Source: a virus (taxonomy: Duplodnaviria; Heunggongvirae; Uroviricota; Caudoviricetes). Taken from it: 26,095 nt of DNA. A program made the position numbers and the translations under genes. This document shows, piece by piece, positions 2,586 to 26,095 of this stretch; the stretch's first letter is position 1; each line of letters opens with the position of its first letter. A model generated the notes under the pieces. That model was not told where the DNA came from, searched no databases, and saw only the letters and a program-made list of their open reading frames with translations. The stretch lies in IMG/VR virus record IMGVR_UViG_2531839476_000012; one strand, 5' to 3'.

Positions 2586-2712
2586 TTTGTTCTCCACGTA
2601 TATGCACTGCACCGCGCTGAATTCTGGTAAAAGGAAGCCCTCACCATCCGGTGATTATTGAGTTAATTACGTTTCCATAAATGCCCCCGCAGGGGCATTT
2701 GCAGTAATGAAA

Positions 2713-3537: not shown

Positions 3538-3602
3538 AATAAGTCCTCACTATATAAAGATATTCAGTGATGAGATAAATAATCAGTTTATTACGAACGA
3601 TA

Positions 3603-3965
3603 TTAACGACCTGCTGCGCGGAGTTTTCCGTCAGGTTCACCGGCAAGAGTCAGTAATTGTCCCTGGTCTTCCTGCAGAATAGTCAGGCGACCACCGCGAT
3701 TGACATACATCGGCGTTTCGGTGGTGTCTTCTTCGGAAATTTTCCCGCGGTTAGTTGGGCGAACATATGAGAGTTTGTGTTTGATTTTCACACGGTTCTC
3801 ATCAAACGGTTCGATTTCCAGATTGAGTGAGACCTTCCCTTTGGTTTTCGTGTTCATCACACCGGAAGCGACCTCACTGAGAACTGCGCCGATTTTGGTT
3901 TCAAATACGCCGCCGTCCAGCTCCCCGATAAATGCCTGCACATCAGTACTGCGTTCGCTAGCCAT
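3603..3965 (-). CDS. yfdP: Hypothetical early protein, 120 aa (YfdP-like)
   Basis: Internal ATG at 3965 with a strong GAGGAG Shine-Dalgarno 7 nt upstream; the 175-aa extension in the ORF track lacks an RBS and runs into a structured non-coding region. Confidence 0.7.
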   Translation of the reverse strand: MASERSTDVQAFIGELDGGVFETKIGAVLSEVASGVMNTKTKGKVSLNLEIEPFDENRVKIKHKLSYVRPTNRGKISEEDTTETPMYVNRGGRLTILQEDQGQLLTLAGEPDGKLRAAGR

Positions 3966-4375
3966 TTTGCTGCTCCTCATCATATCGACCCTGCAAGGTC
4001 GGTTGGTTTCTCCACAAAACAGAGAAGAACACCTGCGGTGGCAGCCGCCCGGATGGATTGGGTTATGAGCCCGTCGTCCGGTGATGCTCTTCTCTGTTTT
4101 GCAAAAAAGGACGGTACCAGCCGGAAGCAAGGGTACAAACTGGTACCGCCAGGACTACACACAGCATAAAGTTGTGGTGCCGGGTGCCTCCCGGTGCCTG
4201 GCGAAGGTTGCACACCAGGCGGGTGGGTATCCACAGAAGGTCGACTGTCAGCCTCAACCTTAACCCGCGTGCGCTGAGCCGCATTCACCACAACGCTAAG
4301 GATTCTCTCTGGTTGAAAATACTTAGCTGTTATGTGCCTGCTTTTAGCCACATCAGGCGAGGTGGACCTGGTTAT

Positions 4376-4421
4376 TCCCCAACAACAAGGATTCGGTTAA
4401 TCTGGATATCCCCAACAACAA
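4376..4421 (+). repeat. Two perfect 13-bp direct repeats (TCCCCAACAACAA) spaced 33 bp apart, just upstream of the accessory gene start
   Basis: Copies at 4376-4388 and 4409-4421 read directly from the sequence; candidate regulator-binding sites. Confidence 0.5.
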
Positions 4422-4435
4422 TAAGAGTATTCAAT

Positions 4436-4951
4436 GTGATCGCTGAATTAACGGCAGCAATGACGGCTATTCGTGAAACAGCCCAGATTGCAAAACTAAT
4501 GAACGAGGCAAAAACTCAAGCTGAAGTAAATGCGGCTATTGGTGAGCTGAACTCAAAGCTTGCGTCTATTCAGCGCGAATGCGTGTCTCTCGTTGAACTG
4601 GTGGGCTCTTATCAAGAAATAAATGCTTCTCTCAAAGCTAAAATTGCAGAATTCGAAAACTTTGAGGCTCAGACGGAAGGCTATATCCTTAACCAACTTG
4701 AGTCGGGTACTTTTGTATACTCGAAGGAGGTAATCGTGAACGGTGGCAGCATAACCATGCATCTTTGCCCAAAATGTTTTGGACAAAAGATAGTATCGAT
4801 ACTTCAACCATTCCCGGTTAGCGAAGATGAGCTTTTTCATAAAAGCAGGTGCCTCCACTGTGAAAATAAGTTTCTGATGAATAAAAATCCGGATTACGTA
4901 TCGCCTCCATCCATTGAGGAGTTGTCCAGAAAACTTAACGGCAATCTGTAG
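4436..4951 (+). CDS. Hypothetical accessory protein: N-terminal coiled-coil plus C-terminal CxxC...CxxC zinc-ribbon-like motif (about 165-171 aa)
   Basis: Open frame ending at TAG 4949-4951. Start is GTG 4436 (AAGAG about 9 nt upstream) or ATG 4460. Heptad-like helical N-terminus (AQIAKLMNEAKTQAEVNAAIGELNSKLASIQRE...), then CPKCFGQ...CLHCENKF. Followed by a rho-independent terminator. Opposite in orientation to the flanking cI and early-left genes. Confidence 0.5.
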   Translation: MIAELTAAMTAIRETAQIAKLMNEAKTQAEVNAAIGELNSKLASIQRECVSLVELVGSYQEINASLKAKIAEFENFEAQTEGYILNQLESGTFVYSKEVIVNGGSITMHLCPKCFGQKIVSILQPFPVSEDELFHKSRCLHCENKFLMNKNPDYVSPPSIEELSRKLNGNL

Positions 4952-4990
4952 ATTACTACTGTTGTGGATATCCAGATTGTTAAAGAGCTA

Positions 4991-5014
4991 AGCGTCCTGT
5001 AGGGCGCTTTTTTG
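4991..5014 (+). terminator. Rho-independent terminator for the accessory gene
   Basis: Imperfect GC-rich hairpin AGCGTCC-TGTA-GGGCGCT followed by TTTTTTG. Confidence 0.6.
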
Positions 5015-5099
5015 TTGCTAACGAATCATCCTGGACTTCATATGCCCCAGGCGGCTACTTCGTGGGCGTCCTGCCTGTTCGTTATCTTTGATATAAAAT

Positions 5100-5113
5100 C
5101 TAACTTAACTTAG
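5100..5113. promoter_or_regulatory. Candidate left operator (oL): 14-bp palindrome CTAACTTAACTTAG
   Basis: Same CTAA(C/G)-N4-CTTAG architecture as the two palindromes in the cI-cro intergenic region; lies just downstream of the cI stop. Confidence 0.45.
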
Positions 5114-5178
5114 TTATCATGACAAGAGAAAACACCAAACTTTTCTTGGTTCGGTGCCTTAGTTAGAGAAGAGAGGTC

Positions 5179-5805
5179 TTAGAGTTCGTATTGAACTCCT
5201 TTGACTACACCAATGATAAGGCAATTACCATTGATAGGGATGTTGGGATACCGAGGATTTAATGGCACTAAAAACTTTTGAGGGCCATCGATGACTAATT
5301 TTTTTACTGTAGCTTCGTTTGTTCCATCAAGTCGAGCGATGACTATTTTTCCATGACGAGGTTCTGCATCTGGATCTACAATCACTGTTGCGCCTTCTGG
5401 TATTGTTGGGAGGCCATTAGGGTTAGTCATGGAGTCACCTTTAACCTCTAATGCAAATGAGTTATCACCAACCTTTAATGATGTATCTACCCACTTGTCC
5501 ACTTCACTAAACACTTCTGCTGCCCTGCACTCAGTAAACTGCCCAGCCTGAACCCACGATATTACAGGAACTCTGCGCATGTTTGTGACGAGTTTGCCTT
5601 CAAACTCAGCACCGTAAAGAATGTAATCTATTGACGTATTGAAGAACTTCGCTAATTTCGAAAGTGCCTCCCCGCCAGGGGTATTGATGTCTTTCTCCCA
5701 GTACCCCACAGCAACGTCGCTTACTCCACAAAATTTACCCAATTCTTTCTGGGACGTTCTGGTAACTCTTCTCAGAGCTTTTATACGCTGACCAACCGTT
5801 TCCAT
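5179..5805 (-). CDS. cI: cI-type prophage repressor (HTH plus LexA-like S24 self-cleaving peptidase domain), 208 aa
   Basis: N-terminal HTH (TSQKELGKFCGVSDVAVGYWE); Ala-Gly cleavage site (VQAGQF); catalytic Ser in GDSM and downstream Lys (ATVKKL); divergent from the cro-like gene. Confidence 0.9.
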   Translation of the reverse strand: METVGQRIKALRRVTRTSQKELGKFCGVSDVAVGYWEKDINTPGGEALSKLAKFFNTSIDYILYGAEFEGKLVTNMRRVPVISWVQAGQFTECRAAEVFSEVDKWVDTSLKVGDNSFALEVKGDSMTNPNGLPTIPEGATVIVDPDAEPRHGKIVIARLDGTNEATVKKLVIDGPQKFLVPLNPRYPNIPINGNCLIIGVVKGVQYEL

Positions 5806-5827
5806 AGGAGCACCATTTCTTTAATCG

Positions 5828-5890
5828 CTAAGTAATCTTAGTTTTTATTGACCAAAGATAGATTTGTAATTAGCATCTAACAAAACTTAG
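5828..5890. promoter_or_regulatory. Immunity switch (oR/pR/pRM): two 14-bp operator palindromes flanking a -35-like TTGACC
   Basis: O1 CTAAGTAATCTTAG (5828-5841); O2 CTAACAAAACTTAG (5877-5890); TTGACC at 5848-5853; GGAGGG RBS for cro at 5894-5899. Confidence 0.6.
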
Positions 5891-5902
5891 TTTGGAGGGC
5901 GT

Positions 5903-6103
5903 ATGACAACTGACGATATCGAAAGCTACTTCGGCAGTATTGAGAAAGTTGCTGCTTTTTTCGGCATAACAACTGAAGCCGTTTATCAGTGGCGAAACCG
6001 TCCGGGCCAGTTAATTCCAAAAGGACGTGCAGCAGAAGCTGCATATAGAACTTGCGGACGGTTGCCATTTAAACCTGAGCTTTATGAAAAATCTAATGGA
6101 TAA
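5903..6103 (+). CDS. cro: Cro-like small DNA-binding regulator, 66 aa
   Basis: Divergent from cI across the operator region; GGAGGG Shine-Dalgarno; small basic protein with an HTH-like segment (ITTEAVYQWRNRPGQ). Confidence 0.75.
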   Translation: MTTDDIESYFGSIEKVAAFFGITTEAVYQWRNRPGQLIPKGRAAEAAYRTCGRLPFKPELYEKSNG

Positions 6104-6692
6104 ATCGATTAACAGAAACCACAGAACGATGAGGCTAACCGTGGGTAAGCATCACTGGAAAGTAGAAAAACAGCCTGAGTGGTACGTGAAAGCTGTCAGA
6201 AAAACTATCGCAAAGTTGCCGGGTGGTTACGCTGAAGCAGCTGACTGGCTGGATGTAACAGAGAACGCATTATTTAACCGCCTTCGTGCCGATGGCGATC
6301 AGATTTTCCCGCTGGGATGGGCAATGATTTTGCAACGTGCTGGTGGAACTCACTTCATTGCTGACGCAGTGGCGCAGTCTGCAAATGGCGTCTTTGTGTC
6401 TCTTCCTGACGTCGAGGATGTGGACAACGCCGATATTAACCAGCGCCTGCTGGAAGTCATTGAACAGATCGGCAGTTATTCAAAACAGATTCGTTCAGCA
6501 ATTGAAGACGGTGTAGTGGAACCGCATGAGAAGACAGCAATTAACGACGAGCTGTACCTCTCAATTTCGAAGCTGCAGGAGCATGCAGCACTGGTCTACA
6601 AAATTTTTTGCATTTCAGAAAGTAATGACGCCCGCGAGTGTGCAGCTCCGGGCGCCGTGGCGTGTCGTGACTGTGGAGAAACTAACGCATGA
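6084..6692 (+). CDS. Hypothetical early regulatory protein in the cII position (about 199-202 aa)
   Basis: ORF directly downstream of cro in the rightward operon. Start is ATG 6084 or ATG 6096, both overlapping the cro 3' end. C-terminal CxxC-like motif (CRDCGETNA). Assignment is by position only. Confidence 0.5.
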
Positions 6693-7027
6693 ACAGTTTA
6701 ACAACACACTACCGTCGCTCGCAACTGATTGCGCTTCCTGTACCGGGTGGAAAAGCGAAGGTGGAGTATTGCTATGCAGTAAATGTACCAGGTGACAGGG
6801 AAATTGTAACCCACAGCTTTGCAGAGTGGGCTGTGGGTGATTTCAACCGGCAGAAGGAGACAGTCCTTTGCGACAAGTTAACCGCTGGTTCAAAGATCAC
6901 TACGGAGTGCCCGTCAGAGTCATTCGTTGGGAGCCGGAAACACAACGTGTTATCTACCTCCGCGAAGGCTATGAGCATGAGTGCTTCAGCCCGCTCGAAC
7001 AGTTTCGTCGTAAATTCAGGGAAATAG
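6689..7027 (+). CDS. Hypothetical protein, 112 aa, with a suspect low-complexity C-terminal half (possible frameshifted gene)
   Basis: ATGA start/stop overlap with the upstream gene. The second half is Ser-rich, while an alternative frame over the same DNA reads a more protein-like sequence (see 6868-7047). Confidence 0.35.
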
Positions 7028-7047
7028 AGGTCGGTCATGAGCACTAA
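6868..7047 (+). CDS. Candidate small ORF (59 aa, TTG start) or displaced C-terminus of the preceding gene
   Basis: Perfect AAGGAG Shine-Dalgarno at 6854-6859, 8 nt before TTG 6868. Translation [59 protein letters not shown], ending TAA 7045-7047. Below the ORF-track size cutoff. Confidence 0.35.
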
Positions 7048-7978
7048 ATTAACCGGCTATGTATGGGATGGTTGCGCTGCATCAGGCATGAAATTATCCA
7101 GCGTGGCAATTATGGCCCGCCTGGCTGATTTCAGTAATGACGAAGGTGTGTGCTGGCCATCAATTGAAACCATTGCCCGCCAGATTGGCGCGGGGATGAG
7201 TACCGTCAGAACGGCTATCGCACGGCTGGAAGCAGAAGGCTGGTTAACGCGTAGGGCGCGTCGCCAGGGTAACCGCAATGCGTCGAATGTTTATCAGCTT
7301 AACGTTGCGAAGCTTCAGGCAGCGGCATTTTCTCAACTGTCAGATTCTGACCCGTCAAAATCTGACGCATCAAAATCTGACCCGTCAAAATTTGATGCGT
7401 CGAAATCTGGCAAAAAAGCGGGTTTTCACCCGTCAGAATCTGGTGGGGATCCGTCAGTAAAATCAAAACATGATCCGTCAGATAAAAAAACTTCTCGTCC
7501 GGACGCTTCGCAACCGGACACGCAGACGGCTGAACAGGATTTTTTAACTCGCCATCCTGATGCGGTTGTATTCAGCCCTAAAAAGCGCCAGTGGGGGACG
7601 CAGGATGATTTGACCTGCGCACAGTGGCTCTGGAAAAAAATCATCGCCCTGTACGAGCATGCCGCCGAATGTGACGGCGAGGTGGTTCGTCCCAAAGAAC
7701 CGAACTGGACAGCCTGGGCAAACGAAATTCGCCTGATGTGTGTGCAGGATGGTCGTACTCATAAACAAATCTGCGAGATGTACAGCCGCGTCAGTCGCGA
7801 TCCGTTCTGGTGCCGTAACGTGCTCAGCCCGTCGAAGCTGCGGGAAAAATGGGATGAGCTTTCCCTGCGCTTATCGCCGTCCGTCAGCACGTACACCGAA
7901 AAACGCGAAGACCCGTACTTCAAAGCCAGTTACGACAACGTGGACTACAGCCAGATCCCGGCAGGATTCAGGGGGTGA
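7037..7978 (+). CDS. Replication initiator (O-like; N-terminal winged-helix DNA-binding domain, SD(P/A)SK repeat linker, C-terminal domain), 313 aa
   Basis: N-terminal HTH region (SVAIMARLADFSNDEGVCWPSIETIARQIGAGMSTVRTAIARLEAEGWL); internal tandem 15-bp iterons encode SDPSKSDASKSDPSKFDASKS; position after the cII-like gene mirrors lambda O with its internal ori. Confidence 0.7.
   Translation: MSTKLTGYVWDGCAASGMKLSSVAIMARLADFSNDEGVCWPSIETIARQIGAGMSTVRTAIARLEAEGWLTRRARRQGNRNASNVYQLNVAKLQAAAFSQLSDSDPSKSDASKSDPSKFDASKSGKKAGFHPSESGGDPSVKSKHDPSDKKTSRPDASQPDTQTAEQDFLTRHPDAVVFSPKKRQWGTQDDLTCAQWLWKKIIALYEHAAECDGEVVRPKEPNWTAWANEIRLMCVQDGRTHKQICEMYSRVSRDPFWCRNVLSPSKLREKWDELSLRLSPSVSTYTEKREDPYFKASYDNVDYSQIPAGFRG
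7346..7490. repeat. Putative replication origin: 15-bp tandem iterons with internal dyad CGTCA-N5-TGACG, followed by an A-rich tract
   Basis: TCTGACCCGTCAAAA / TCTGACGCATCAAAA / TCTGACCCGTCAAAA / TTTGATGCGTCGAAA in tandem (7346-7405), further CCGTCAG-containing copies to about 7480, then GATAAAAAAA (7481-7490). Confidence 0.65.
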
Positions 7979-7980
7979 TC

Positions 7981-8469
7981 ATGAGTCTTTTGAATGACGT
8001 TCAGAAATTCATTGAAGCCCATCCGGGGTGTACTTCCGGAGACATTGCGGATGCTTTTGCAGGTTACTCACGACAGCGCGTTCTGCAGTCAGCAAGCAAG
8101 TTACGTCAGAGTGGGCGTGTGGCTCACCGTTGTGAAGGGGATACACGCAGACATTTCCCGCGGCTGACTGAGATACCGCAGGAGCCGGAACCGCAACCAG
8201 TTCGTGAATCCAGACCTGTGCGCAATTTCTATGTCGGCACTAACGATCCCCGGGTGATTTTGTGCCTGACCCGCCAGGCGGAAGAACTGGAGTCCAGGGG
8301 CTTATACCGTCGTGCTGCAACGGTGTGGATGGCGGCATTCCGTGAAAGCCACTCCCAGCAAGAGCGAAACAATTTTCTTGCGCGTCGTGAGCGGTGTTTA
8401 CGGAAAAGCAGCAAGCGCGCTGCATCGGGTGAAGAGTGGTATCTGTCAGGGAATTACGTGGGGGCTTAA
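7981..8469 (+). CDS. Hypothetical protein with a PerC/ANR-like C-terminal motif, 162 aa
   Basis: ATG 7981 with a GGGGG Shine-Dalgarno; C-terminal segment (ELESRGLYRRAATVWMAAFRESHSQQERNNFLARRERCL) recalled as resembling PerC/ANR-family regulators. Confidence 0.5.
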   Translation: MSLLNDVQKFIEAHPGCTSGDIADAFAGYSRQRVLQSASKLRQSGRVAHRCEGDTRRHFPRLTEIPQEPEPQPVRESRPVRNFYVGTNDPRVILCLTRQAEELESRGLYRRAATVWMAAFRESHSQQERNNFLARRERCLRKSSKRAASGEEWYLSGNYVGA

Positions 8470-9122
8470 TGAGTAATAAATATTGCCAGGCGCTGGTGGA
8501 GCTGCGGAACAAACCAGCCCATGAACTGAAGGAAGTGGGCGATCAGTGGCGCACGCCGGACAACATTTTCTGGGGAATTAACACCCTGTTTGGCCCGTTT
8601 GTTCTGGATCTGTTTACTGATGGTGATAACGCCAAATGCGCCGCGTATTACACTGCGGAAGACAACGCGCTGGCGCATGACTGGTCAGAACGTCTTGCGG
8701 AGCTTAAAGGTGCTGCCTTTGGTAATCCCCCGTACAGCCGCGCCAGTCAGCATGAGGGGCAATACATCACCGGCATGCGTTACATCATGAAGCATGCCAG
8801 TGCCATGCGTGATAAAGGCGGGCGCTATGTTTTCCTGATCAAAGCTGCCACCAGCGAAGTTTGGTGGCCGGAAGATGCAGACCATATTGCTTTTATTCGC
8901 GGGCGTATTGGTTTTGAACTGCCAGCCTGGTTTATCCCGAAGGACGAGAAGCAGGTGCCGACAGGCGCTTTCTTCGCTGGTGCTATTGCTGTTTTCGACA
9001 AGACCCGGAAGGGACCGGCAATCAGCTACATCGGGCGCGATGAACTTGAGGCATGTGGTGAGGCCTTTCTGGCGCAGGTTCGCCAGCAGGCGGAAAAACT
9101 GGTCAGGGAGATGGCGGCATGA
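8469..9122 (+). CDS. Phage orphan DNA N6-adenine methyltransferase, 217 aa
   Basis: Catalytic NPPY motif (AFGNPPYSR); TAATG overlap with the upstream stop; no adjacent restriction endonuclease gene. Confidence 0.8.
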   Translation: MSNKYCQALVELRNKPAHELKEVGDQWRTPDNIFWGINTLFGPFVLDLFTDGDNAKCAAYYTAEDNALAHDWSERLAELKGAAFGNPPYSRASQHEGQYITGMRYIMKHASAMRDKGGRYVFLIKAATSEVWWPEDADHIAFIRGRIGFELPAWFIPKDEKQVPTGAFFAGAIAVFDKTRKGPAISYIGRDELEACGEAFLAQVRQQAEKLVREMAA

Positions 9123-9445
9123 CGACGTTAACTCAATGCCAGCAGCAGGTGCTGGATATGCTGATTTCTTACCAGCAAGAACGTGGCTTTCCGCCAACCA
9201 ATCAGGAGGTGGCAACCATGCTGGGATACCGTTCGGTGAATGCAGCGGTGGAGCATCTTCGCGCACTGGAGAAAAAAGGCGTCATCACGATAAAGCGTGG
9301 CGTGGCCCGGGGGATAACTCTTCATACCGCGGTGAAGGACGACGACAGCGAGGCGGTCGGGATTATCCGCGCACTGCTTGCCGGTGAGGAAAACGCCAGG
9401 CTGCGTGCAGCCCACTGGTTACATGAGAGGGGCCTGAAAGTATGA
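9119..9445 (+). CDS. LexA-like protein with the N-terminal DNA-binding domain only (no S24 peptidase domain), 108 aa
   Basis: Clear pattern match to the LexA N-terminal winged-helix domain (LTQCQQQVLDMLISYQQERGFPPTNQEVATMLGYRSVNAAVEHLRALEKKGVITIKRGVARGITL); the protein ends about 40 aa after the domain. Confidence 0.75.
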   Translation: MTTLTQCQQQVLDMLISYQQERGFPPTNQEVATMLGYRSVNAAVEHLRALEKKGVITIKRGVARGITLHTAVKDDDSEAVGIIRALLAGEENARLRAAHWLHERGLKV

Positions 9446-9831
9446 AGCTGATCTTGCCTTTCCCGCCCAGCGTGAACACGTACTGGCGACACCCCAACAA
9501 AGGGGCGTTTGCTGGTAAGAGTCTGATAAGCGCAGCGGGGCGCAAATTCCAGAGCGCGGCGTGCGCAGCAATAGTTGAGCAGTTACGTCGTCTGCCGAAA
9601 CCAACGTCGGCACCTGCTTCAGTGGAGATCGTGTTGTTTCCTCCGGATAACCGGATCCGCGATCTGGACAACTATAACAAGGCGCTGTTTGACGCCCTGA
9701 CCCATGCGGGTGTGTGGGAAGACGACAGTCAGGTGAAAAGAATGCTGGTGGAGTGGGGACCGGTTATCCCGAAAGGGAAGGTCGAGATCACTATCAGTAA
9801 GTACGAGAAAACGGCGGGTGCAGCCGCCTGA
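9442..9831 (+). CDS. rusA: RusA-family Holliday junction resolvase, 129 aa
   Basis: Conserved RusA motifs (LPFPPSVNTYWRH, DLDNYNKALFDALTHAGVWEDDSQV); ATGA overlap with the upstream gene. Confidence 0.85.
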   Translation: MKLILPFPPSVNTYWRHPNKGAFAGKSLISAAGRKFQSAACAAIVEQLRRLPKPTSAPASVEIVLFPPDNRIRDLDNYNKALFDALTHAGVWEDDSQVKRMLVEWGPVIPKGKVEITISKYEKTAGAAA

Positions 9832-9850
9832 TCAAGAGGAGAAACGAAGT

Positions 9851-10456
9851 ATGAATAATCTGATGGTCATTGATGGTATTGAAGTTCGTCGTGATGCTTA
9901 TGGGCGTTACAGCCTGAACGATCTGCATCGCGCAGCAGTAGCATCTGGTGCAAATGCCAGAACCAAGGAGCCGGGAAAGTTTCTTTCCAGCCAACAAACT
10001 GTTGAGCTTGTTCATGAATTGACCAACACCCAGAATTTGGGTGTTGACCCGGTGAGTGTGATTCATGGGGGAAATGAACGGGGAACGTATGTCTGCAAGG
10101 AACTGGTGTATGCCTATGCAATGTGGATCAGCCCGTCATTCCATCTGAAGGTGATCCGTACTTTCGATATGGTAACCAGCGCACCGGAAAAATTATCCGG
10201 ACAGGCTGCTGACAAGATGCAGGCTGGCGTGATCCTGCTGGACTTTATGCGCCGGGAGTTAAACCTGTCTAACTCTTCAGTGCTTGGTGCCTGTCAGAAA
10301 CTCCAGGAGGCTGTTGGCTTACCGAATCTGGCACCGCGCTATGCCATTGATGCTCCTGCTGATGCACACGATGGCTCAAGTCGCCCGACACTGTCACTGA
10401 GTGCACTGCTGAAACAGTATGGTATACGCCTGACGGCTAATCAGGCATATCACTAG
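9851..10456 (+). CDS. KilA-N domain protein, 201 aa
   Basis: ATG 9851 preceded by AGGAGA; N-terminal KilA-N-like region (MNNLMVIDGIEVRRDAYGRYSLNDLHRAA). Confidence 0.7.
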   Translation: MNNLMVIDGIEVRRDAYGRYSLNDLHRAAVASGANARTKEPGKFLSSQQTVELVHELTNTQNLGVDPVSVIHGGNERGTYVCKELVYAYAMWISPSFHLKVIRTFDMVTSAPEKLSGQAADKMQAGVILLDFMRRELNLSNSSVLGACQKLQEAVGLPNLAPRYAIDAPADAHDGSSRPTLSLSALLKQYGIRLTANQAYH

Positions 10457-10660
10457 ATGGTGAAACTGGGGATCGTCGAGCAGCGCGAACGATACAGCCG
10501 TACAGCGATTAACAACATCAAAAAATTCTGGTCGCTGACAGCGAAAGGTTGCATGTTCGGCAAGAACATCACCAGTCCCGCAAATCCGCGCGAGACACAG
10601 CCGCATTTCTTCGAATCCCGATTCCCTGAGCTGTTAAAGCTGCTCGATACCGTTCATTGA
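10457..10660 (+). CDS. Small hypothetical ORF (67 aa) immediately after the KilA-N gene
   Basis: ATG directly follows the upstream TAG stop; no recognisable motif; could be a displaced C-terminal piece of the KilA-N gene. Confidence 0.3.
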   Translation: MVKLGIVEQRERYSRTAINNIKKFWSLTAKGCMFGKNITSPANPRETQPHFFESRFPELLKLLDTVH

Positions 10661-10661
10661 G

Positions 10662-11657
10662 GTGACCGTGAGAGCACTACTGACCCCTGAAATTGCCCCG
10701 CGTATGGGGATCGTATTGTTCAGGCCAGGTTCAGAGCTGATGCCCCTGTTTATGCAGGGGCGTGTCCTGCTGGAGCCTGAGCCGGAGCGTTATTCATCTT
10801 TCGCCAGTGGTGCCGTTCCGGCGGCATCACAACCGCTGGCGGATGATCCTGCCGTTCGGGCCGTGTTCCGCAATGAGGCAGTGATCCGTCGTGCTGGTGG
10901 CGTGGAATGTCTTGAAAGCTGGTTACTTCGTGAAAAAGGCTGCCAGTGGCCTCATTCCGACTGGCACAGCGAGAACATGACCACAATGCGACACGCTCCG
11001 GGTGCAATCCGTCTGTGCTGGCACTGCGATAACCAGCTGCGCGATCAGTTCACGGAACGGCTGGAATCAATGGCAACGGATAACTGTGCCCGCTGGGTGT
11101 TGTCTGTTGTGCGTCGGGATCTCGGTTTTGATGACAGTCACGTTGTGACAATGCCGGAACTGTGCTGGTGGCTGATTCGTAATGATCTGGCGGATGCCTT
11201 ACCGGAAAGTGCAGCCCGTAAGGCACTGAGATTACCGAAGCCTGTTGTGCCGTCTGTTACCCGGGAAAGTGACCTTGTGCCTTCGGTTCCTGCCACCAGC
11301 ATCATCCAGGATAAGGCGAAAAAGGTGCTGGCGCTGAAAGTGGATCCGGAGTCGCCGGAGTCTTTTATGTTACGCCCAAAACGTCGCCGCTGGGTTAATG
11401 AAAAGTACACGCGCAGGGTTAAGACACAGCCGTGTGCATGTTGTGGAAAGCCAGCTGATGATCCGCATCATCTGATAGGCCATGGTCAGGGTGGAATGGG
11501 TACAAAAGCGCATGACCTTTTTGTGCTGCCTTTGTGCAGAAAACACCACGACGAACTGCATGCGGATACCGTGGCATTTGAAGAGAAGTATGGCTCCCAG
11601 CTGGAGCTGATATTTCGTTTTATCGATCGCGCACTGGCGATTGGTGTGCTGGCCTGA
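10662..11657 (+). CDS. DUF968-like prophage protein with a C-terminal HNH/zinc-finger-like motif, 331 aa
   Basis: C-terminal [28 protein letters not shown]...CRKHHDELH has HNH-like Cys/His spacing; GTG start at 10662 right after the upstream stop. Confidence 0.65.
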
Positions 11658-11674
11658 TTTTGTGGAGAAAGTTA

Positions 11675-13249
<1,575 letters not shown>

Positions 13250-13290
13250 CTAATTAATATGCCAATTGTTTACTGAAAGTTATTAAAAAT

Positions 13291-13308
13291 GGGGCGTTGC
13301 AACGCCCC
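13291..13308 (-). terminator. Perfect 18-bp palindrome GGGGCGTTGCAACGCCCC, T-rich on the minus strand side; candidate terminator downstream of the porin gene
   Basis: Perfect 9-bp stem; on the minus strand it is followed by ATTTTTAAT. Confidence 0.45.
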
Positions 13309-13396
13309 CAAAAATAAAGGGTAATATATAACAGAAGGTTTATATAGTTAGAAGCAAGGTTGTGCTCCTAAAGGAAGTGGCTTGAGGGAGTCACTT

Positions 13397-13436
13397 ATAT
13401 GTTGGGGAGGCAACGCCTCCCGCAACATATCTTTTT
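13397..13436 (+). terminator. Long imperfect palindrome followed by a T5 run; candidate plus-strand terminator (possible tR'-like element)
   Basis: ATATGTTGGGGAGGC-AAC-GCCTCCCGCAACATAT then CTTTTTC. Confidence 0.45.
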
Positions 13437-13446
13437 CGTAATCAGA

Positions 13447-14544
13447 TTAGAACTGGTAAACCAGACCTACAGCAACGATGTCATCAGTGCTTACACCGAG
13501 TGCTTTAGTGAAGTCATTTTTGTCAAGCAGGTTGATTTTGTAATCAACGAAAGTAGACATATTTTTGTTGAAGTAATAGGTTGCACCTACATCAACATAT
13601 TTGACTAAGTCCTGATCGCCCCATACTCCAAGATCCTTACCTTTAGATTGCAGGTAAGCAACGGACGGACGCAGACCGAAATCGAACTGATATTGTGCAA
13701 CAGCTTCGAAGTTTTGAGCTTTATTAGCAACGAAGTGATCAGCAAATACAGTCATATTCTGGGTTTCAGAATAGGTAGTGGCCAGGTAAATGTTGTTAGC
13801 GTCATATTTCAGACCTGCGGCCCAAACTTCTGCATTTTTACCGGAAGCAAATACTTCAGGAAGAACTTTCCCTGCATTAACTTGAGTGTCGGTACGATCA
13901 GATTTCGCATAAGTTGCACCGATACCGAATCCTTCGTATTCATAGGTAGCAGAGAAACCGAAGCCATCACCGTTACCTTCGGTGTAGTTATCGAAATCGC
14001 TACGATCGTTTTTGCCTTGGTACTGAGCAGCAAAGTTCAGACCATCAACCAGACCAAAGAAGTCGTTGTTACGATAGGTTGCAACACCAGTGGTGCGACC
14101 AGTCATGAACACATCTGTTTGGGTCCAGGTATCGCCACCGAATTCTGGCAGAACGTCAGTCCACGCACCGATGTCGTATGCTACACCGTAGTTACGGCCG
14201 TAATCGATTGAGCCGTAGTCACCGAATTTCAGGCCTGCAAATGCAAGACGGGTTTTGTCTTTGGAGGAACCTTGAGATTCAGCGCGGTTGCCTTTGAATT
14301 CATATTCCCACTGACCGAAACCAGTCAGCTGATCGTTGATTTGGGTTTCGCCTTTGAAGCCCAGACGAACATAAGTAGTATCACCATCATCTGCATCGTT
14401 AGAGGAAAAGTAGTGCTTGGCATTAACTTTCCCGTACAGATCCAGCTTGTTACTGTCTTTATTATAAATTTCAGCTGCCTGAGCAGACATCGCCATCAGT
14501 ACTGATGCAGCTACAGCAGAAATTGCCACTGTTAATTTTTTCAT
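13447..14544 (-). CDS. nmpC: Outer-membrane general porin of the OmpC/NmpC/Lc family, intact 365-aa precursor
   Basis: Signal peptide [23 protein letters not shown]; porin beta-barrel sequence throughout; C-terminal ...VGLVYQF with terminal Phe; opposite in orientation to the surrounding phage genes. Confidence 0.9.
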
Positions 14545-15132
14545 CGTGAGCCCTTTTTTTTGAACTATTATTAAAAAATGATGTCACTGCGCGATAAATA
14601 TTCATCTAATCAATGTGATTATTTCAAGATGTAAGTTTTAGTTTCTCATTTAATTTGTGAAGTAGATCTCTATTTTTATCTGAACTTTTTCTATCGAAAC
14701 CTATTTATGGCTCTTATTTGAACAAAAATAAATCTATTAGCTAATTTATATTAATGGCTGTTATTTATGGTGGTTCTATAATTCGTCTGTTTAATTTAAA
14801 CCGGCTAAAAATAACACTGGAAATTATTTATTGGTTATTTGTTGAGGTTTTCTTATGTATTTGTTGTGATGTTTTGAACACTCGGTAGCATTCTCATAAA
14901 TATCATTCAGTGGTTTACGTACGTAAAAAATTGGTTATGCTGTTAAGAGTGGTTACTTCGTCACACAGCTTAAACCCGCCGTCGAGCTGGTTTTTCCATT
15001 TTTTGAGTCTCGATATTAGCTGATAACTCAATACCTGAGTTATTCACTGACTCGGAGTCAGTTACGTTTCTGCTTTTTTGCGATACGTTGTATTCCCTCA
15101 ATTTACACCCGCTTTGTCTGCGAGGTGGGGTT

Positions 15133-15348
15133 ATGAAATTCATGGATAAGTTAACAACTGGAGTCGCCTATGGCACCTCAGCAGGTAGTGCCGGTTACTG
15201 GTTTTTACAGCTGCTCGATAAAGTCACTCCCTCACAGTGGGCAGCAATAGGTGTGCTGGGTAGCCTGGTATTTGGCCTGCTGACGTACCTGACAAACCTT
15301 TATTTCAAGATTAAAGAAGATAAGCGCAAGGCTGCGAGAGGTGAATAA
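15133..15348 (+). CDS. essD: Class II holin with dual-start motif (MKFM), 71 aa
   Basis: GAGGTGGGG Shine-Dalgarno; two in-frame ATGs (15133 and 15142); one or two transmembrane helices; stop overlaps the lysozyme start (TAATG). Confidence 0.85.
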
Positions 15349-15845
15349 TGCCTCCATCATTACGAAAAGCCGTTGCTGCTGCTATTGGTGGCGGAGCAAT
15401 TGCTATAGCATCAGTGTTAATCACTGGCCCAAGTGGTAACGATGGTCTGGAAGGTGTCAGCTACATACCATACAAAGATATTGTTGGTGTATGGACTGTA
15501 TGTCACGGACACACCGGAAAAGACATCATGCTCGGTAAAACGTATACCAAAGCAGAATGCAAAGCACTCTTGAATAAAGACCTTGCCACTGTCGCCAGAC
15601 AAATTAACCCGTATATCAAAGTCGATATACCGGAAACAACGCGCGGCGCTCTTTACTCATTCGTTTACAATGTGGGTGCTGGCAATTTTAGAACATCGAC
15701 GCTTCTTCGCAAAATAAACCAGGGCGATATCAAAGGCGCATGTGATCAGCTGCGTCGCTGGACATACGCTGGCGGTAAGCAATGGAAAGGCCTGATGACT
15801 CGTCGTGAGATTGAGCGTGAAGTCTGTTTGTGGGGGCAACAGTGA
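15348..15845 (+). CDS. rrrD: Phage endolysin, 165 aa (lysozyme with an N-terminal signal-anchor-like segment)
   Basis: Hydrophobic N-terminal segment ([18 protein letters not shown]) followed by a lysozyme-like domain; sequence recalled as RrrD/R21-like. Confidence 0.9.
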
Positions 15846-16303
15846 GCAGAGTAACCGCGATTATATCCGCTCTGATTATCTGCATCATCGTCAGCCTGTC
15901 ATGGGCGGTCAATCATTACCGTGATAACGCAATCGCCTACAAAGCCCAGCGCGACAAAAATGCCAGAGAACTGAAGCTAGCGAACGCGGCAATTACTGAC
16001 ATGCAGATGCGTCAGCGTGATGTTGCTGCGCTCGATGCAAAATACACGAAGGAGTTAGCTGATGCGAAAGCTGAAAATGATGCTCTGCGTGATGATGTTG
16101 CCGCTGGTCGTCGTCGGTTGCACATCAAAGCAGTCTGTCAGTCAGTGCGTGAAGCCACCACGGCCTCCGGCGTGGATAATGCAGCCTCCCCCCGACTGGC
16201 AGACACCGCTGAACGGGATTATTTCACCCTCAGAGAGAGGCTGATCACTATGCAAAAACAACTGGAAGGAACCCAGAAGTATATTAATGAGCAGTGCAGA
16301 TAG
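15842..16303 (+). CDS. rzpD: Rz-like inner-membrane spanin, 153 aa
   Basis: GTG start overlapping the lysozyme stop; N-terminal transmembrane helix then a coiled-coil periplasmic domain. Confidence 0.8.
16062..16244 (+). CDS. rzoD: Rz1-like outer-membrane lipoprotein spanin, embedded in another frame of the Rz gene, 60 aa
   Basis: Lipobox LVVVGC; proline-rich mature region ([18 protein letters not shown]); lies entirely within 15842-16303. Confidence 0.75.
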
Positions 16304-16334
16304 AGCTGACCATATCGATGGGCAACTCATGCAA

Positions 16335-16628
16335 TTATTTTGAGCAATACACACGCGCTTCCAGCGGAGTATAAATGCCTAAAGTAATAAAACCGAGCAA
16401 TCCATTTACGAATGTTTGCTGGGTTTCTGTTTTAACAACATTTTCTGCGCCGCCACAAATTTTGGCTGCATCGACAGTTTTCTTCTGCCCAATTCCAGAA
16501 ACGAAGAAATGATGGGTGATGGTTTCCTTTGGTGCTACTGCTGTCTGTTTGTTTTGAACAGTAAACGTCTGTTGAGCACATCCTGTAATAAGCAGGGCCA
16601 GCGCAGTAGCGAGTAGCATTTTTTTCAT
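16335..16628 (-). CDS. bor: Bor lipoprotein (serum-resistance family), 97 aa
   Basis: Signal peptide and lipobox (LLITGC); sequence recalled as lambda Bor-like. Confidence 0.9.
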   Translation of the reverse strand: MKKMLLATALALLITGCAQQTFTVQNKQTAVAPKETITHHFFVSGIGQKKTVDAAKICGGAENVVKTETQQTFVNGLLGFITLGIYTPLEARVYCSK

Positions 16629-16918
16629 GGTGTTATTCCCGATGCTTTTTGAAGTTCGCAGAATCGTATGTGTAGAAAATTAAACAAACCCTAAACAATG
16701 AGTTGAAATTTCATATTGTTAATATTTATTAATGTATGTCAGGTGCGATGAATCGTCATTGTATTCCCGGATTAACTATGTCCACAGCCCTGACGGGGAA
16801 CTTCTCTGCGGGAGTGTCCGGGAATAATTAAAAACGATGCACACAGGGTTTAGCGCGTACACGTATTGCATTATGCCAACGCCCCGGTGCTGACACGGAA
16901 GAAACCGGACGTTATGAT

Positions 16919-17371
16919 TTAGCGTGGAAAGATTTGTGTAGTGTTCTGAATGCTCTCAGTAAATAGTAATGAATTATCAAAGGTATAGTAATATCTTTTA
17001 TGTTCGTGGATATTTGTAACCCATCGGAAAACTCCTGCTTTAGCAAGATTTTCCCTGTATTGCTGAAATGTGATTTCTCTTGATTTCAACCTATCAAAGG
17101 ACGTTTCTATAAGATGCGTATTTCTTGAGAATTTAACATTTACAACCTTTTTAAGTCCTTTTATTAACACAGTGTTATCGTTTTTTAACACAATGTGAAT
17201 ATTATCTGTGGCTAGATAGTAAATATAATGTGAGACATTGTGACGTTTTAGTTCAGAATAAAACAATTCACAGTTTAAATCTTTTCGCACTTGATCGAAT
17301 ATTTCTTTAAAAATGGCAACCTGAGCCATTGGTAAAACCTTCCATGTGATACGAGGGCGCGTAGTTTGCAT
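16919..17371 (-). CDS. ybcV: YbcV-like (DUF1398) prophage protein, 150 aa from ATG 17371 (177 aa if TTG 17452 is used)
   Basis: ORF on the minus strand; the longest start is TTG with no Shine-Dalgarno, so the internal ATG is preferred. Confidence 0.65.
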
Positions 17372-17614
17372 TATCGTTTTTATCGTTTCAATCTGGTCTG
17401 ACCTCTTTGTGTTTTGTTGATGATTTATGTCAAATATTAGGAATGTTTTCAATTAATAGTATTGGTTGTGTAACAAAGTGCGGTCCTGCTGGCATTCTGG
17501 AGGGAAATACAACCGACAGATGTATGTAAGGCCAACGTGCTCAAATCTTCATACAGAAAGATTTGAAGTAATATTTTAACCGCTAGATGAAGAGCAAGCG
17601 CATGGAGCGACAAA

Positions 17615-17821
17615 ATGAATAAAGAACAATCTGCTGATGATCCCTCCGTGGATCTGATTCGTGTAAAAAATATGCTTAATAGCACCATTTCTATGAGTTA
17701 CCCTGATGTTGTAATTGCATGTATAGAACATAAGGTGTCTCTGGAAGCATTCAGGGCAATTGAGGCAGCGTTGGTGAAGCACGATAATAATATGAAGGAT
17801 TATTCCCTGGTGGTTGACTGA
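17615..17821 (+). CDS. ybcW: YbcW-like small hypothetical protein, 68 aa
   Basis: Compact ORF in an AT-rich accessory segment; sequence recalled as DLP12 YbcW-like. Confidence 0.5.
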
Positions 17822-17985
17822 TCACCATAACTGCTAATCATTCAAACTACTTAACCTGTGACAGAGCCAACACGCAGTCTGTCACTGTCAGGAAAGTGGT
17901 AAAACTGCAACTCAATTACTGCAATGCCCTCGTAATTAAGTGAATTTACAATATCGTCCTGTTCGGAGGGAAGAACGCGGGATGT

Positions 17986-18180
17986 TCATTCTTCATCACT
18001 TTTAATTGATGTATATGCTCTCTTTTCTGACGTTAGCCTCCGACGGCAGGCTTCAATGACCCAGGCTGAGAAATTCCCGGACCCTTTTTGATCAAGAGCG
18101 ATGTTAATTTGTTCAATCATTTGGTTAGGAAAGCGGATGTTGCGGGTTGTTGTTCTGCGGGTTCTGTTCTTCGTTGACAT
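17986..18180 (-). CDS. ylcI: YlcI-like small basic protein (possible ribbon-helix-helix fold), 64 aa
   Basis: Arg-rich N-terminus (MSTKNRTRRTTTRNIRFPNQMIEQINIALDQ); located just upstream of cos. Confidence 0.5.
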   Translation of the reverse strand: MSTKNRTRRTTTRNIRFPNQMIEQINIALDQKGSGNFSAWVIEACRRRLTSEKRAYTSIKSDEE

Positions 18181-18379
18181 GAGGTTGCCCCGTATTCAGT
18201 GTCGCTGATTTGTATTGTCTGAAGTTGTTTTTACGTTAAGTTGATGCGGATCAATTAATACGATACCTGCGTCATAATTGATTATTTGACGTGGTTTGAT
18301 GGCGTAGATGCACGTTGTGACATGTAGATGATAATTATTATCATTTTGCGGGTCCTTTCCGGCGATCCGACAGGTTACG

Positions 18380-18391
18380 GGGCGGCGACCT
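18380..18391. other. cos: cosN, the lambda-type cohesive-end site (12-nt GGGCGGCGACCT); cosB lies between here and Nu1
   Basis: Exact match to the lambda 12-nt cohesive end, preceded by ...GATCCGACAGGTTACG; Nu1 starts about 190 bp downstream as in lambda. Confidence 0.85.
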
Positions 18392-18568
18392 CGCGGGTTT
18401 TCGCTATTTATGAAAATTTTCCGGTTTAAGGCGTTTCCGTTCTTCTTCGTCGTAACTTAATGTTTTTATTTAAAATACCCCCTGAAAAGAAAGGAAACGA
18501 CAGGTGCTGAAAACGAACTTTTGGGCCTTTGTCGTTTCCTTTCTCTGTTTTTGGCCGTGGAATGAACA

Positions 18569-19088
18569 ATGGAAGTCAACAAAAAGCAGCTGGCTGACAT
18601 TTTCGGTGCGAGTATCCGTACCATTCAGAACTGGCAGGAACAGGGAATGCCCGTTCTGCGAGGCGGTGGCAAGGGTAATGAGGTGCTTTATGACTCTGCC
18701 GCCGTCATAAAATGGTATGCCGAAAGGGATGCTGAAATTGAGAACGAAAAGCTGCGCCGGGAGGTTGAAGAACTGCGGCAGGCCAGCGAGGCAGATCTCC
18801 AGCCAGGAACTATTGAGTACGAACGCCATCGACTTACGCGTGCGCAGGCCGACGCACAGGAACTGAAGAATGCCAGAGACTCCGCTGAAGTGGTGGAAAC
18901 CGCATTCTGTACTTTCGTGTTGTCGCGGATCGCAGGTGAAATTGCCAGTATTCTCGACGGGCTCCCCCTGTCGGTGCAGCGGCGTTTTCCGGAACTGGAA
19001 AACCGACATGTTGATTTCCTGAAACGGGATATCATCAAAGCCATGAACAAAGCAGCCGCGCTGGATGAACTGATACCGGGGTTGCTGA

Positions 19089-19114
<26 letters not shown>
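18569..19114 (+). CDS. nu1: Terminase small subunit Nu1, 181 aa
   Basis: Protein matches lambda Nu1 as recalled (MEVNKKQLADIFGASIRTIQNWQEQGMPV...); N-terminal winged-HTH; position right after cos. Confidence 0.95.
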
Positions 19115-22790
<3,676 letters not shown>

Positions 22791-22810
<20 letters not shown>

Positions 22811-24110
22811 TCTCCCGCATATTGCCAGCATGGCCTTTAATGAGCCGCTGATGCTTGAACCGCCTATGCGCGGGTTTTCTTTTGTGCGCTTGCAGGCCAG
22901 CTTGGGATCAGCCGCCTGACGGATGCGGTGTCCGGCGACAGCCTGACTGCCCAGGAGGCGCTCGCGACGCTGGCATTATCCGGTGATGATGACGGACCAC
23001 GACAGGCCCGCAGTTATCAGGTCATGAACGGCATCGCCGTGCTGCCGGTGTCCGGCACGCTGGTCAGCCGGACGCGGGCGCTGCAGCCGTACTCGGGGGA
23101 TGACCGGTTACAACGGCATTATCGCCCGTCTGCAACAGGCTGCCAGCGATCCGATGGTGGACGGCATTCTGCTCGATATGGTACACGCCCGGCGGGATGG
23201 TGCGGGGGCATTTGACTGCGCTGACATCATCGCCCGTGTGCGTGACATAAAACCGGTATGGGCGCTTGCCAACGACATGAACTGCAGTGCAGGTCAGTTG
23301 CTTGCCAGTGCCGCCTCCCGGCGTCTGGTCACGCAGACCGCCCGGACAGGCTCCATCGGCGTCATGATGGCTCACAGTAATTACGGTGCTGCGCTGGAGA
23401 AACAGGGTGTGGAAATCACCCTGATTTACAGCGGCAGCCATAAGGTGGATGGCAACCCCTACAGCCATCTTCCGGATGACGTCCGGGAGACACTGCAGTC
23501 CCGGATGGACGCAACCCGCCGGATGTTTGCGCAGAAGGTGTCGGCATATACCGGCCTGTCCGTGCAGGCTGTGCTGGATACCGAGGCTGCAGTGTACAGC
23601 GGTCAGGAGGCCATTGATGCCGGACTGGCTGATGAACTTGTTAACAGCACCGATGCGATCACCGTCATGCGTGATGCACTGGATGCACGTAAATCCCGTC
23701 TCTCAGGAGGGCGAATGACCAAAGAGACTCAATCAACAACTGTTTCAGCCACTGCTTCGCAGGCTGACGTTACTGACGTGGTGCCAGCGACGGAGGGCGA
23801 GAACGCCAGCGCGGCGCAGCCGGACGTGAACGCGCAGATCACCGCAGCGGTTGCGGCAGAAAACAGCCGCATTATGGGGATCCTCAACTGTGAGGAGGCT
23901 CACGGACGCGAAGAACAGGCACGCGTGCTGGCAGAAACCCCCGGTATGACCGTGAAAACGGCCCGCCGCATTCTGGCCGCAGCACCACAGAGTGCACAGG
24001 CGCGCAGTGACACTGCGCTGGATCGTCTGATGCAGGGGGCACCGGCACCGCTGGCTGCAGGTAACCCGGCATCTGATGCCGTTAACGATTTGCTGAACAC
24101 ACCAGTGTAA
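22791..24110 (+). pseudogene. C: Prohead protease/scaffold C (with in-frame Nu3 region), interrupted by several indels
   Basis: GTG start 22791. N-terminus (TAELRNLPHIASMAFNEPLMLEP) in one frame, VSGDSLTAQEALATLALSGDDDGPRQARSYQ... in another (ORF 22928-23215), remainder in ORF 23100-24110. Breaks at CC 22860-22861 and the G-run 23095-23099, plus a compensating pair near 23182 and 23202. Confidence 0.8.
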
Positions 24111-24119
24111 GGGATGTTT

Positions 24120-24452
24120 ATGACGAGCAAAGAAACCTTTACCCATTACCAGCCGCAGGGCAACAGTGACCCGGCTCATACCGCAACCGCGCCCGGCGGA
24201 TTGAGTGCGAAAGCGCCTGCAATGACCCCGCTGATGCTGGACACCTCCAGCCGTAAGCTGGTTGCGTGGGATGGCACCACCGACGGTGCTGCCGTTGGCA
24301 TTCTTGCGGTTGCTGCTGACCAGACCAGCACCACGCTGACGTTCTACAAGTCCGGCACGTTCCGTTATGAGGATGTGCTCTGGCCGGAGGCTGCCAGCGA
24401 CGAGACGAAAAAACGGACCGCGTTTGCCGGAACGGCAATCAGCATCGTTTAA
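24120..24452 (+). CDS. D: Head decoration protein D, 110 aa
   Basis: Intact; matches lambda gpD as recalled ([41 protein letters not shown]...). Confidence 0.92.
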
Positions 24453-24472
24453 CTTTACCCTTCATCACTAAA

Positions 24473-24494
24473 GGCCGCCTGTGCGGCTTTTTTT
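24473..24494 (+). terminator. Hairpin plus T7 run between D and E (terminator-like or attenuator)
   Basis: GCCGC-CTGT-GCGGC followed by TTTTTTT. Confidence 0.5.
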
Positions 24495-24507
24495 ACGGGA
24501 TTTTTTT

Positions 24508-25533
24508 ATGTCGATGTACACAACCGCCCAACTGCTGGCGGCAAATGAGCAGAAATTTAAGTTTGATCCGCTGTTTCTGCGTCTCTTTTTCCGTGAGAGC
24601 TATCCCTTCACCACGGAGAAAGTCTATCTCTCACAAATTCCGGGACTGGTAAACATGGCGCTGTACGTTTCGCCGATTGTTTCCGGTGAGGTTATCCGTT
24701 CCCGTGGCGGCTCCACCTCTGAATTTACGCCGGGATATGTCAAGCCGAAGCATGAAGTGAATCCGCAGATGACCCTGCGTCGCCTGCCGGATGAAGATCC
24801 GCAGAATCTGGCGGACCCGGCTTACCGCCGCCGTCGCATCATCATGCAGAACATGCGTGACGAAGAGCTGGCCATTGCTCAGGTCGAAGAGATGCAGGCA
24901 GTTTCTGCCGTGCTTAAGGGCAAATACACCATGACCGGTGAAGCCTTCGATCCGGTTGAGGTGGATATGGGCCGCAGTGAGGAGAATAACATCACGCAGT
25001 CCGGCGGCACGGAGTGGAGCAAGCGTGACAAGTCCACGTATGACCCGACCGACGATATCGAAGCCTACGCGCTGAACGCCAGCGGTGTGGTGAATATCAT
25101 CGTGTTCGATCCGAAAGGCTGGGCGCTGTTCCGTTCCTTCAAAGCCGTCAAGGAGAAGCTGGATACCCGTCGTGGCTCTAATTCCGAGCTGGAGACAGCG
25201 GTGAAAGACCTAGGTAAAGCGGTGTCCTATAAGGGGATGTATGGCGATGTGGCCATCGTCGTGTATTCCGGACAGTACGTGGAAAACGGCGTCAAAAAGA
25301 ACTTCCTGCCGGACAACACGATGGTGCTGGGGAACACTCAGGCACGCGGTCTGCGCACCTATGGCTGCATTCAGGATGCGGACGCACAGCGCGAAGGCAT
25401 TAACGCCTCTGCCCGTTACCCGAAAAACTGGGTGACCACCGGCGATCCGGCGCGTGAGTTCACCATGATTCAGTCAGCACCGCTGATGCTGCTGGCTGAC
25501 CCTGATGAGTTCGTGTCCGTACAACTGGCGTAA
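24508..25533 (+). CDS. E: Major capsid protein E, 341 aa
   Basis: Intact; matches lambda gpE as recalled (MSMYTTAQLLAANEQKFKFDPLFLRLFFRESYPFTTEKVYL...). Confidence 0.95.
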   Translation: MSMYTTAQLLAANEQKFKFDPLFLRLFFRESYPFTTEKVYLSQIPGLVNMALYVSPIVSGEVIRSRGGSTSEFTPGYVKPKHEVNPQMTLRRLPDEDPQNLADPAYRRRRIIMQNMRDEELAIAQVEEMQAVSAVLKGKYTMTGEAFDPVEVDMGRSEENNITQSGGTEWSKRDKSTYDPTDDIEAYALNASGVVNIIVFDPKGWALFRSFKAVKEKLDTRRGSNSELETAVKDLGKAVSYKGMYGDVAIVVYSGQYVENGVKKNFLPDNTMVLGNTQARGLRTYGCIQDADAQREGINASARYPKNWVTTGDPAREFTMIQSAPLMLLADPDEFVSVQLA

Positions 25534-25574
25534 TCATGGCCCTTCGGGGCCATTGTTTCTCTGTGGAGGAGTCC

Positions 25575-25973
25575 ATGACGAAAGATGAACTGATTGCCCG
25601 TCTCCGCTCGCTGGGTGAACAACTGAACCGTGATGTCAGCCTGACGGGGACGAAAGAAGAACTGGCGCTCCGTGTGGCAGAGCTGGAAGAGGAGCTTGAT
25701 GACACGGATGAAACTGCCGGTCAGGACACCCCTCTCAGCCGGGAAAATGTGCTGACCGGACATGAAAATGAGGTGGGATCAGCGCAGCCGGATACCGTGA
25801 TTCTGGATACGTCTGAACTGGTCACGGTCGTGGCACTGGTGAAGCTGCATACTGATGCACTTCACGCCACGCGGGATGAACCTGTGGCATTTGTGCTGCC
25901 GGGAACGGCGTTTCGTGTCTCTGCCGGTGTGGCAGCCGAAATGACAGAGCGCGGCCTGGCCAGAATGCAATAA
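25575..25973 (+). CDS. FI: DNA packaging protein FI, 132 aa
   Basis: Intact; matches lambda gpFI as recalled (MTKDELIARLRSLGEQLNRDVSLTGTKEELALRVAEL...); GGAGGAG Shine-Dalgarno. Confidence 0.9.
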   Translation: MTKDELIARLRSLGEQLNRDVSLTGTKEELALRVAELEEELDDTDETAGQDTPLSRENVLTGHENEVGSAQPDTVILDTSELVTVVALVKLHTDALHATRDEPVAFVLPGTAFRVSAGVAAEMTERGLARMQ

Positions 25974-25984
25974 CGGGAGGCGCT

Positions 25985-26095
25985 GTGGCTGATTTCGATA
26001 ACCTGTTCGATGCTGCCATTGCCCGCGCCGATGAAACGATACGCGGGTACATGGGAACGTCAGCCACCATTACATCCGGTGAGCAGTCAGGTGCG
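25985..26095 (+). CDS. FII: Head-tail connector FII, 5' part only (runs off the window)
   Basis: GTG start with GGGAGG Shine-Dalgarno; translation (M)ADFDNLFDAAIARADETIRGYMGTSATITSGEQSGA matches the lambda FII N-terminus as recalled. Confidence 0.75.
   Translation, partial: MADFDNLFDAAIARADETIRGYMGTSATITSGEQSGA

Follow-up and report, generated by a model that had tools for sequence, protein, structure and literature searches.

The closest described counterpart of the locus studied here is gene C of phage lambda, which encodes the gpC-type S49 head protease/scaffold and contains the nested scaffold gene Nu3. The locus lies at 22791-24110 on the + strand of a 26,095-nt stretch of viral DNA (IMG/VR record IMGVR_UViG_2531839476_000012), which is called the window throughout. 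It shares with lambda C/Nu3 its place in the operon (Nu1-A-W-B-C/Nu3-D-E-FI), the GTG start, the length of 1320 nt, and an intact Nu3 ORF, and the DNA is 99.3% identical to lambda 4326-5827. In contrast to lambda gene C, the ORF in the window is broken by four single-base indels and the residues DTPGG read VHARR. In the records searched, lambda and phage 434 included, neither the breaks nor VHARR was found. Programmed ribosomal frameshifting, as in lambda G/GT, was considered and ruled out because the C ORF is uninterrupted in all relatives.

Single-base indel errors, mainly in homopolymers, are a known feature of draft and long-read assemblies. Like the changes described below, they are private to one assembly, indel-heavy, and located mostly in mononucleotide runs, and they lead to the deposition of split ORFs. 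The changes in the window differ from typical assembly indel errors in that they all fall within 3.8 kb instead of being scattered, and in that they also affect runs of 2-3 nt and one site outside any run. Since the gene C breaks are part of a burst of changes that no other sequenced genome carries in full, an error of sequencing or assembly is almost certain, and we put the probability that these breaks are a local consensus error in the draft assembly at about 0.88.

The source of the window is the draft WGS contig AKNI01000011.1 of E. coli EPEC C342-62 (assembly GCA_000268205.1). On this 62,873-nt record, the window covers positions 36779-62873, so that adding 36778 to a window coordinate gives the record coordinate. 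The window contains a lambda-type prophage at the argU/intD site. Positions 18380-26095 are collinear with lambda 1-7722 at 99.6% identity and comprise cos (window 18380 is lambda position 1), Nu1, A, W, B, C/Nu3, D, E, FI, and the start of FII. The 3' limit of the window at 26095 coincides with the end of AKNI01000011.1. This point is inside FII, 2.9 kb past the last difference, and the contig presumably ends there because the assembler halted at tail genes common to other prophages. An Rfam scan of the window found no RNA family.

To place the indels in gene C, the sequence was aligned base by base with lambda, phage 434, and six prophage relatives. At 22860-22861, one base has been lost from a run that is CCC in all relatives and CC here, which pushes the next 78 codons into frame 2. 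At 23095-23099, the G4 of all relatives has become G5; this +1 change puts the reading back in frame 0 and compensates the -1 at 22860. A T has been inserted at 23182, between ATGG and ACACG. At 23202, GG has become G, so that GGTGGCGGGGG in the relatives reads GGTGCGGGGG in the window; the motif here is TGGCGGG. All four changes are given for the + strand. A preliminary description of this DNA, made from the letters alone, had put indels at these four places, and the alignments agree with it exactly. Its segment lengths of 24 and 78 codons are correct by translation. It had also assigned the gene to three frames, and while the 78 codons are indeed displaced, the N-terminal 24 codons and the remainder share frame 0. 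Displacement affects only the 78 codons, which are in frame 2, and 19 nt that are in frame 1.

Since the N-terminus and the remainder are in one frame, the four indels amount to two compensating pairs, one with a spacing of 235 nt and the other of 20 nt, and the wild-type length is kept. The wide pair (22860/23095) fails to rescue translation because there is a frame 0 stop 18 codons past the -1. As deposited, translation from the start therefore ends after 42 codons rather than continuing through 439 codons. The narrow pair does restore the frame over about 20 bp, as had been proposed, but it rewrites seven codons and not about eight: DTPGGMV becomes VHARRDG at 23181-23201 (+ strand). In wild-type DMDTPGG, the residues DTPGG align to the conserved NSPGG of the SppA structures 3RST and 3BF0. 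The x(S/T)PGG motif of the S49/SppA fold is missing from the gene as deposited, which reads DMVHARRDG, and it returns once the +1/-1 pair is undone. The rewrite therefore destroys the conserved S49 motif, which argues against selective maintenance of the frame. The segment with the serine nucleophile, where MNCSAGQ of gpC aligns to MAASGGY of SppA, is left alone by the indels.

When the four indels are undone, translation gives a 439-aa protein without a single amino-acid difference from the gene C product of the near-clonal genome FDAARGOS_1059, for which RefSeq records an unbroken 'S49 family peptidase'. Lambda gpC and the repaired protein are different at 3 residues. Peptidase_S49 (PF01343) is detected both in the repaired protein (E=5.6e-44) and in the deposited 336-aa ORF (E=3.7e-44). 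All relatives have an unbroken C ORF, which overlaps the end of B and precedes D. The nested Nu3 scaffold ORF (23505-24110, + strand), which corresponds to lambda nu3 5132-5737, is in frame with the C-terminal third of C and is located 3' of all the changes, and it matches the relatives without a difference past 23420. Alignment to lambda C/Nu3, which the preliminary description had proposed as a check, thus shows all four indels and an intact Nu3. The true gene of the strain is most likely an intact gene for a 439-aa gpC-type S49 protease with nested Nu3.

The complete genomes FDAARGOS_1059 and O111:H2 strain 12A carry essentially the same prophage and served as near-clonal references. Over window positions 1-12054, there are no differences from FDAARGOS_1059 and one from 12A; over 13250-19609, one and none, respectively; and over 23421-26095, none and one. 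Thus, about 21 kb of the ~25-kb prophage is identical to each reference or one base off. The segment from 19610 to 23420 (+ strand; AKNI01000011.1 56388-60198) differs from both at 13 sites, comprising nine single-base indels and four substitutions. By chance, all 13 differences would be found together in a span this long with a probability of approximately 4e-8. The draft contig AIHC01000040.1 gives the same result, as it equals the window over 19,180 aligned nt save for exactly these 13 sites.

The indels of this burst are at 19610, 20966, 21463, 22512, 22738, 22860, 23095, 23182, and 23202. Terminase gene A has two of them, portal gene B three, and C four, while W (21009-21215) is free of changes. 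The substitutions are G19752, G21000, G22960, and C23420, and three of the four are A->G. The inserted T at 23182 is the sole indel outside a homopolymer; the other eight affect runs of 2-6 identical bases, and seven of the nine are deletions. The left edge of the burst is 1.2 kb to the right of cos. Overall, the density is 3.4 changes per kb, and it climbs rightward to 9 differences in the 909 nt between 22512 and 23420, or ~1%, which is about the order of a raw single-read error rate. The gene C indels make up the right-hand, densest end of the burst. Past 23420, the density drops to zero, and D, E, and FI, which share the operon and composition of the burst genes, have no changes. As a separate observation, the G deletions at 19610 and 23202 share a local motif (TGGCGGG -> TGCGGG), which hints at a sequence-specific miscall rather than random loss.

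The same haplotype, with 0-7 substitutions per 12.85 kb, was found in at least nine other assemblies. Six same-haplotype assemblies are free of indels: FDAARGOS_1059, 12A, the draft AIHC01000040.1 (L118), L124, L125, and L127. Another five, L119-L123 (UGCP01, UGBS01, UGEA01, UGEB01, and UGFE01), each have 2-7 single-base indels at scattered positions specific to the assembly. Two IMG/VR loci resemble the burst in A-W-B, one with 4 single-base indels within 825 nt (L079, UViG_2531839476_000010) and one with 3 within 21 nt (L048, UViG_2600254997_000009). In these genes, single-base indels are thus a frequent trait of particular assemblies and not of lineages. L119-L123 are large-contig assemblies, and their indels amount to 12 insertions and 5 deletions spread over the porin gene, A, B, C, D, and E. 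Many of the 'pseudogenes' of this prophage in public data are probably artefacts.

To look for the burst elsewhere, an allele probe of 641 nt was built from 12 segments, each centred on one allele, such that wild-type DNA cannot give the 28-nt seed. The probe gave no matches in six wild-type relatives, while each of its 12 segments matched the window. In a search of 5,426 complete E. coli genomes, 14 records matched, 13 of which match only the segment with the portal T-run. The remaining record matches the 19610 segment over 54 record bases versus 53 query bases, which means that the extra base is retained there. There were no matches to the probe in 50,697 phage records. Twelve of the 13 alleles were therefore not found in these complete genomes or phage records, and these include the C-gene alleles, the compensating pair, and the four substitutions. 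Exact matches to a 45-mer across the compensating pair are lacking from GTDB species representatives, IMG/VR, and JGI metagenome contigs, whereas the wild-type 45-mer has 97 matches in IMG/VR.

Protein look-ups gave a similar picture. The ORF at 23100-24110 (336 aa) is EIQ72513.1, residue for residue, and it is known from a single contig among ~15 billion proteins. The frameshift products EIQ72507, -08, -10, -11, -12, and -13 are on one contig each, from NCBI only. Neither a hypothetical intact A protein with Q->R nor a hypothetical C protein with only the heptapeptide rewritten was present in the exact-protein look-up. Of the frameshift products checked, none is reproduced by an independent assembly apart from a 135-aa portal fragment. 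With the same exception, none of the frameshift products of the window is recorded from Logan, a weak negative because the region may be fragmented there. Changes that are reproduced independently or common to relatives, as in a pseudogene, were not seen, T6->T5 in the portal gene excepted.

This portal allele (21463-21467, + strand; T5 where the relatives have T6) was identified with the allele probe and the protein look-up and is the sole burst allele found elsewhere. It occurs in 9-13 complete genomes. Its product, the 135-aa N-terminal portal fragment, was traced to at least 27 contigs, some of them from Logan assemblies of public runs. T6->T5 is thus a recurrent portal frameshift, and the deletion in the window yields the same 135-aa fragment. 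In the Logan assemblies L135-L137, T6->T5 is the only portal break, with A and C intact, whereas in the window another 12 changes accompany it. In L119, this portal run is T7. The T-run appears to be a true hot spot of slippage in portal genes of the lambda type, and T6->T5 in the window is possibly a genuine variant.

Another difference from the near-clonal relatives is not part of the burst. An IS5 of 1195 bp, with a CTAA target duplication, is inserted at 12055-13249 (+ strand) in quuD, the gene for the late antiterminator. It interrupts the last codon and swaps the terminal N of the protein for KEGANKSLI. The near-clonal relatives do not have quuD::IS5. The Logan contig SRR060744_214 (L117) is 100% identical to window 1675-12079, and it breaks off after the first 25 nt of the IS5. 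Since the left junction is reproduced in the SRR060744 assembly, reads from the strain are public. An identical junction is present in three unrelated complete genomes, MLI110, MB06021, and C600, which suggests an insertion hot spot. We used the junction to look for a resequenced genome of the same strain, and MLI110 was rejected as such because its junction is in an unrelated chromosomal context.

The types of change in the burst were compared with those from natural variation and mutation. The burst has indels and substitutions at 9:4. Across the A-C region of 97 IMG/VR loci (361 kb aligned), there are 12 gap openings and 5,162 mismatches, or ~1:430. E. coli mutation-accumulation lines gave 37 indels and 147 substitutions, and earlier E. 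coli rates, as cited in that paper, give a ratio of ~1:11 (PMC5289635). Under these proportions, the probability of at least nine indels among 13 changes is 2e-4 to 1e-7. By contrast, errors in raw reads from flow-based platforms are mostly indels. For example, raw 454 Titanium reads contain 0.54% insertions, 0.36% deletions, and 0.09% mismatches (PMC3116506); these figures illustrate a flow-based platform only and are not taken to identify the platform of this assembly.

If the changes were real, they could have arisen by strain-private decay, with frameshifts piling up in A, B, and C once the prophage had become silent in the C342-62 lineage, for example through IS5 in quuD. The IS5 is real and private, is located at the 3' end of the late antiterminator gene, and has a junction in an independent assembly, so some relaxed selection on the late genes is conceivable. 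T6->T5 is the only portal break in other strains, and the clone already has shared pseudogenes. One of these is a KilA-N gene (~9850-10660), for which RefSeq annotates an internal stop in both 12A and FDAARGOS_1059 and which is split into gene calls of 201 and 67 aa on AKNI01000011.1. A defect common to the clone has the look of real decay, unlike the private burst. Decay of a silent late operon would also be expected to leave neutral changes throughout it, yet all 13 changes are within 3.8 kb and none is in ~15 kb of flanking prophage; D, E, and FI are untouched. Spread changes with substitutions at least as frequent as indels, as in a pseudogene, are not what was found, and 9:4 compares with an expected ~1:4 to 1:11. 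Alleles other than T6->T5 were seen in no other genome. We regard such decay as unlikely. The segment might instead have recombined in from a paralogous, decayed lambdoid prophage, or the consensus might combine reads from paralogous copies into a chimera. This deserves consideration since lambdoid prophages are often multi-copy in E. coli, and a 12.8-kb query matches 5-6 places in near-clonal genomes. However, A-W-B and C are each found at one place in FDAARGOS_1059, and A-W-B at one place in 12A. No donor is known, as neither the four substitutions nor eight of the nine indels were found in any of the complete E. coli genomes or phage records searched. An imported segment should also bring 1-4% natural synonymous polymorphism, as in LF82, and none is present. 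Since the four substitutions are private too, the burst is not an imported block of natural alleles, and we consider an import or chimera extremely improbable. Neither ordinary decay nor recombination fits the 9:4 spectrum, the clustering, and the lack of further natural polymorphism.

In another reading, all 13 changes would be real and would have arisen together in a localised mutation shower in single-copy prophage DNA. One candidate mechanism is an error-prone repair tract near cos, formed after terminase cut a non-excising prophage in situ, which would leave behind -1 frameshifts and transitions. The burst starts 1.2 kb right of cos, consists mostly of -1 deletions in short runs, and has its A->G excess among the substitutions, all of which would suit this mechanism. 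Other noisy assemblies have similar indels at different places, though, and a technical cause is simpler. A density of 3.4 changes per kb would be orders of magnitude above the expectation for a single error-prone repair tract, and we know of no precedent for a mutation shower at such density in bacteria. A shower of this kind is quite improbable.

Local consensus error fits the alleles best, as they are private to one assembly, indel-dominated, and associated with homopolymers. The preliminary description had favoured technical error over selection as the source of the compensating indels, and private, clustered, indel-heavy alleles in a draft contig support this view. The deposited consensus would then be locally unreliable in 3.8 kb of single-copy DNA, from terminase A to the first half of C. 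The cause may be low read support or poor consensus at 19610-23420, through depth, read quality, or a merge of contig ends. The compensating pairs would be a coincidence of close-set errors and not the result of selection for frame. Some findings count against consensus error. The stretch is single copy, and its GC and homopolymer density are as in the clean flank, so the usual causes of a collapse in quality are unsupported. Repeat collapse and failed polishing were rejected on the single-copy state of A-W-B and C in the reference genomes, and a composition effect was rejected because GC is 57.2% in the burst and 57.5% in the clean D-E-FI flank, with the same homopolymer density. In addition, errors at runs of 2-3 bases are unusual in a well-covered consensus.

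The submitter's annotation contains the fragments that result from the burst. EIQ72507-EIQ72513 (window 19089-24110) include terminase fragments of 216 and 422 aa and portal fragments of 91 and 312 aa. Also deposited are a 117-aa B'-C' fusion named 'head-tail preconnector gp5' and the 336-aa 'S49 peptidase' with the corrupted motif. Six or seven GenBank proteins are thus fragments made by the burst, and both nr and protein clusters now include them. Regions of this kind will be picked up by scans for pseudogenes, prophage decay, or 'compensated frameshifts'. Comparison with near-clonal genomes quickly tells such cases from real decay, since the burst is private, tightly clustered, and made up mainly of indels. 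If the mutation shower were true, it would give bacteria a counterpart of clustered mutagenesis, at a density that has not been reported so far. Otherwise, the biological weight of the breaks is small: the gene is an ordinary lambda-type head protease/scaffold that is very probably intact in the strain.
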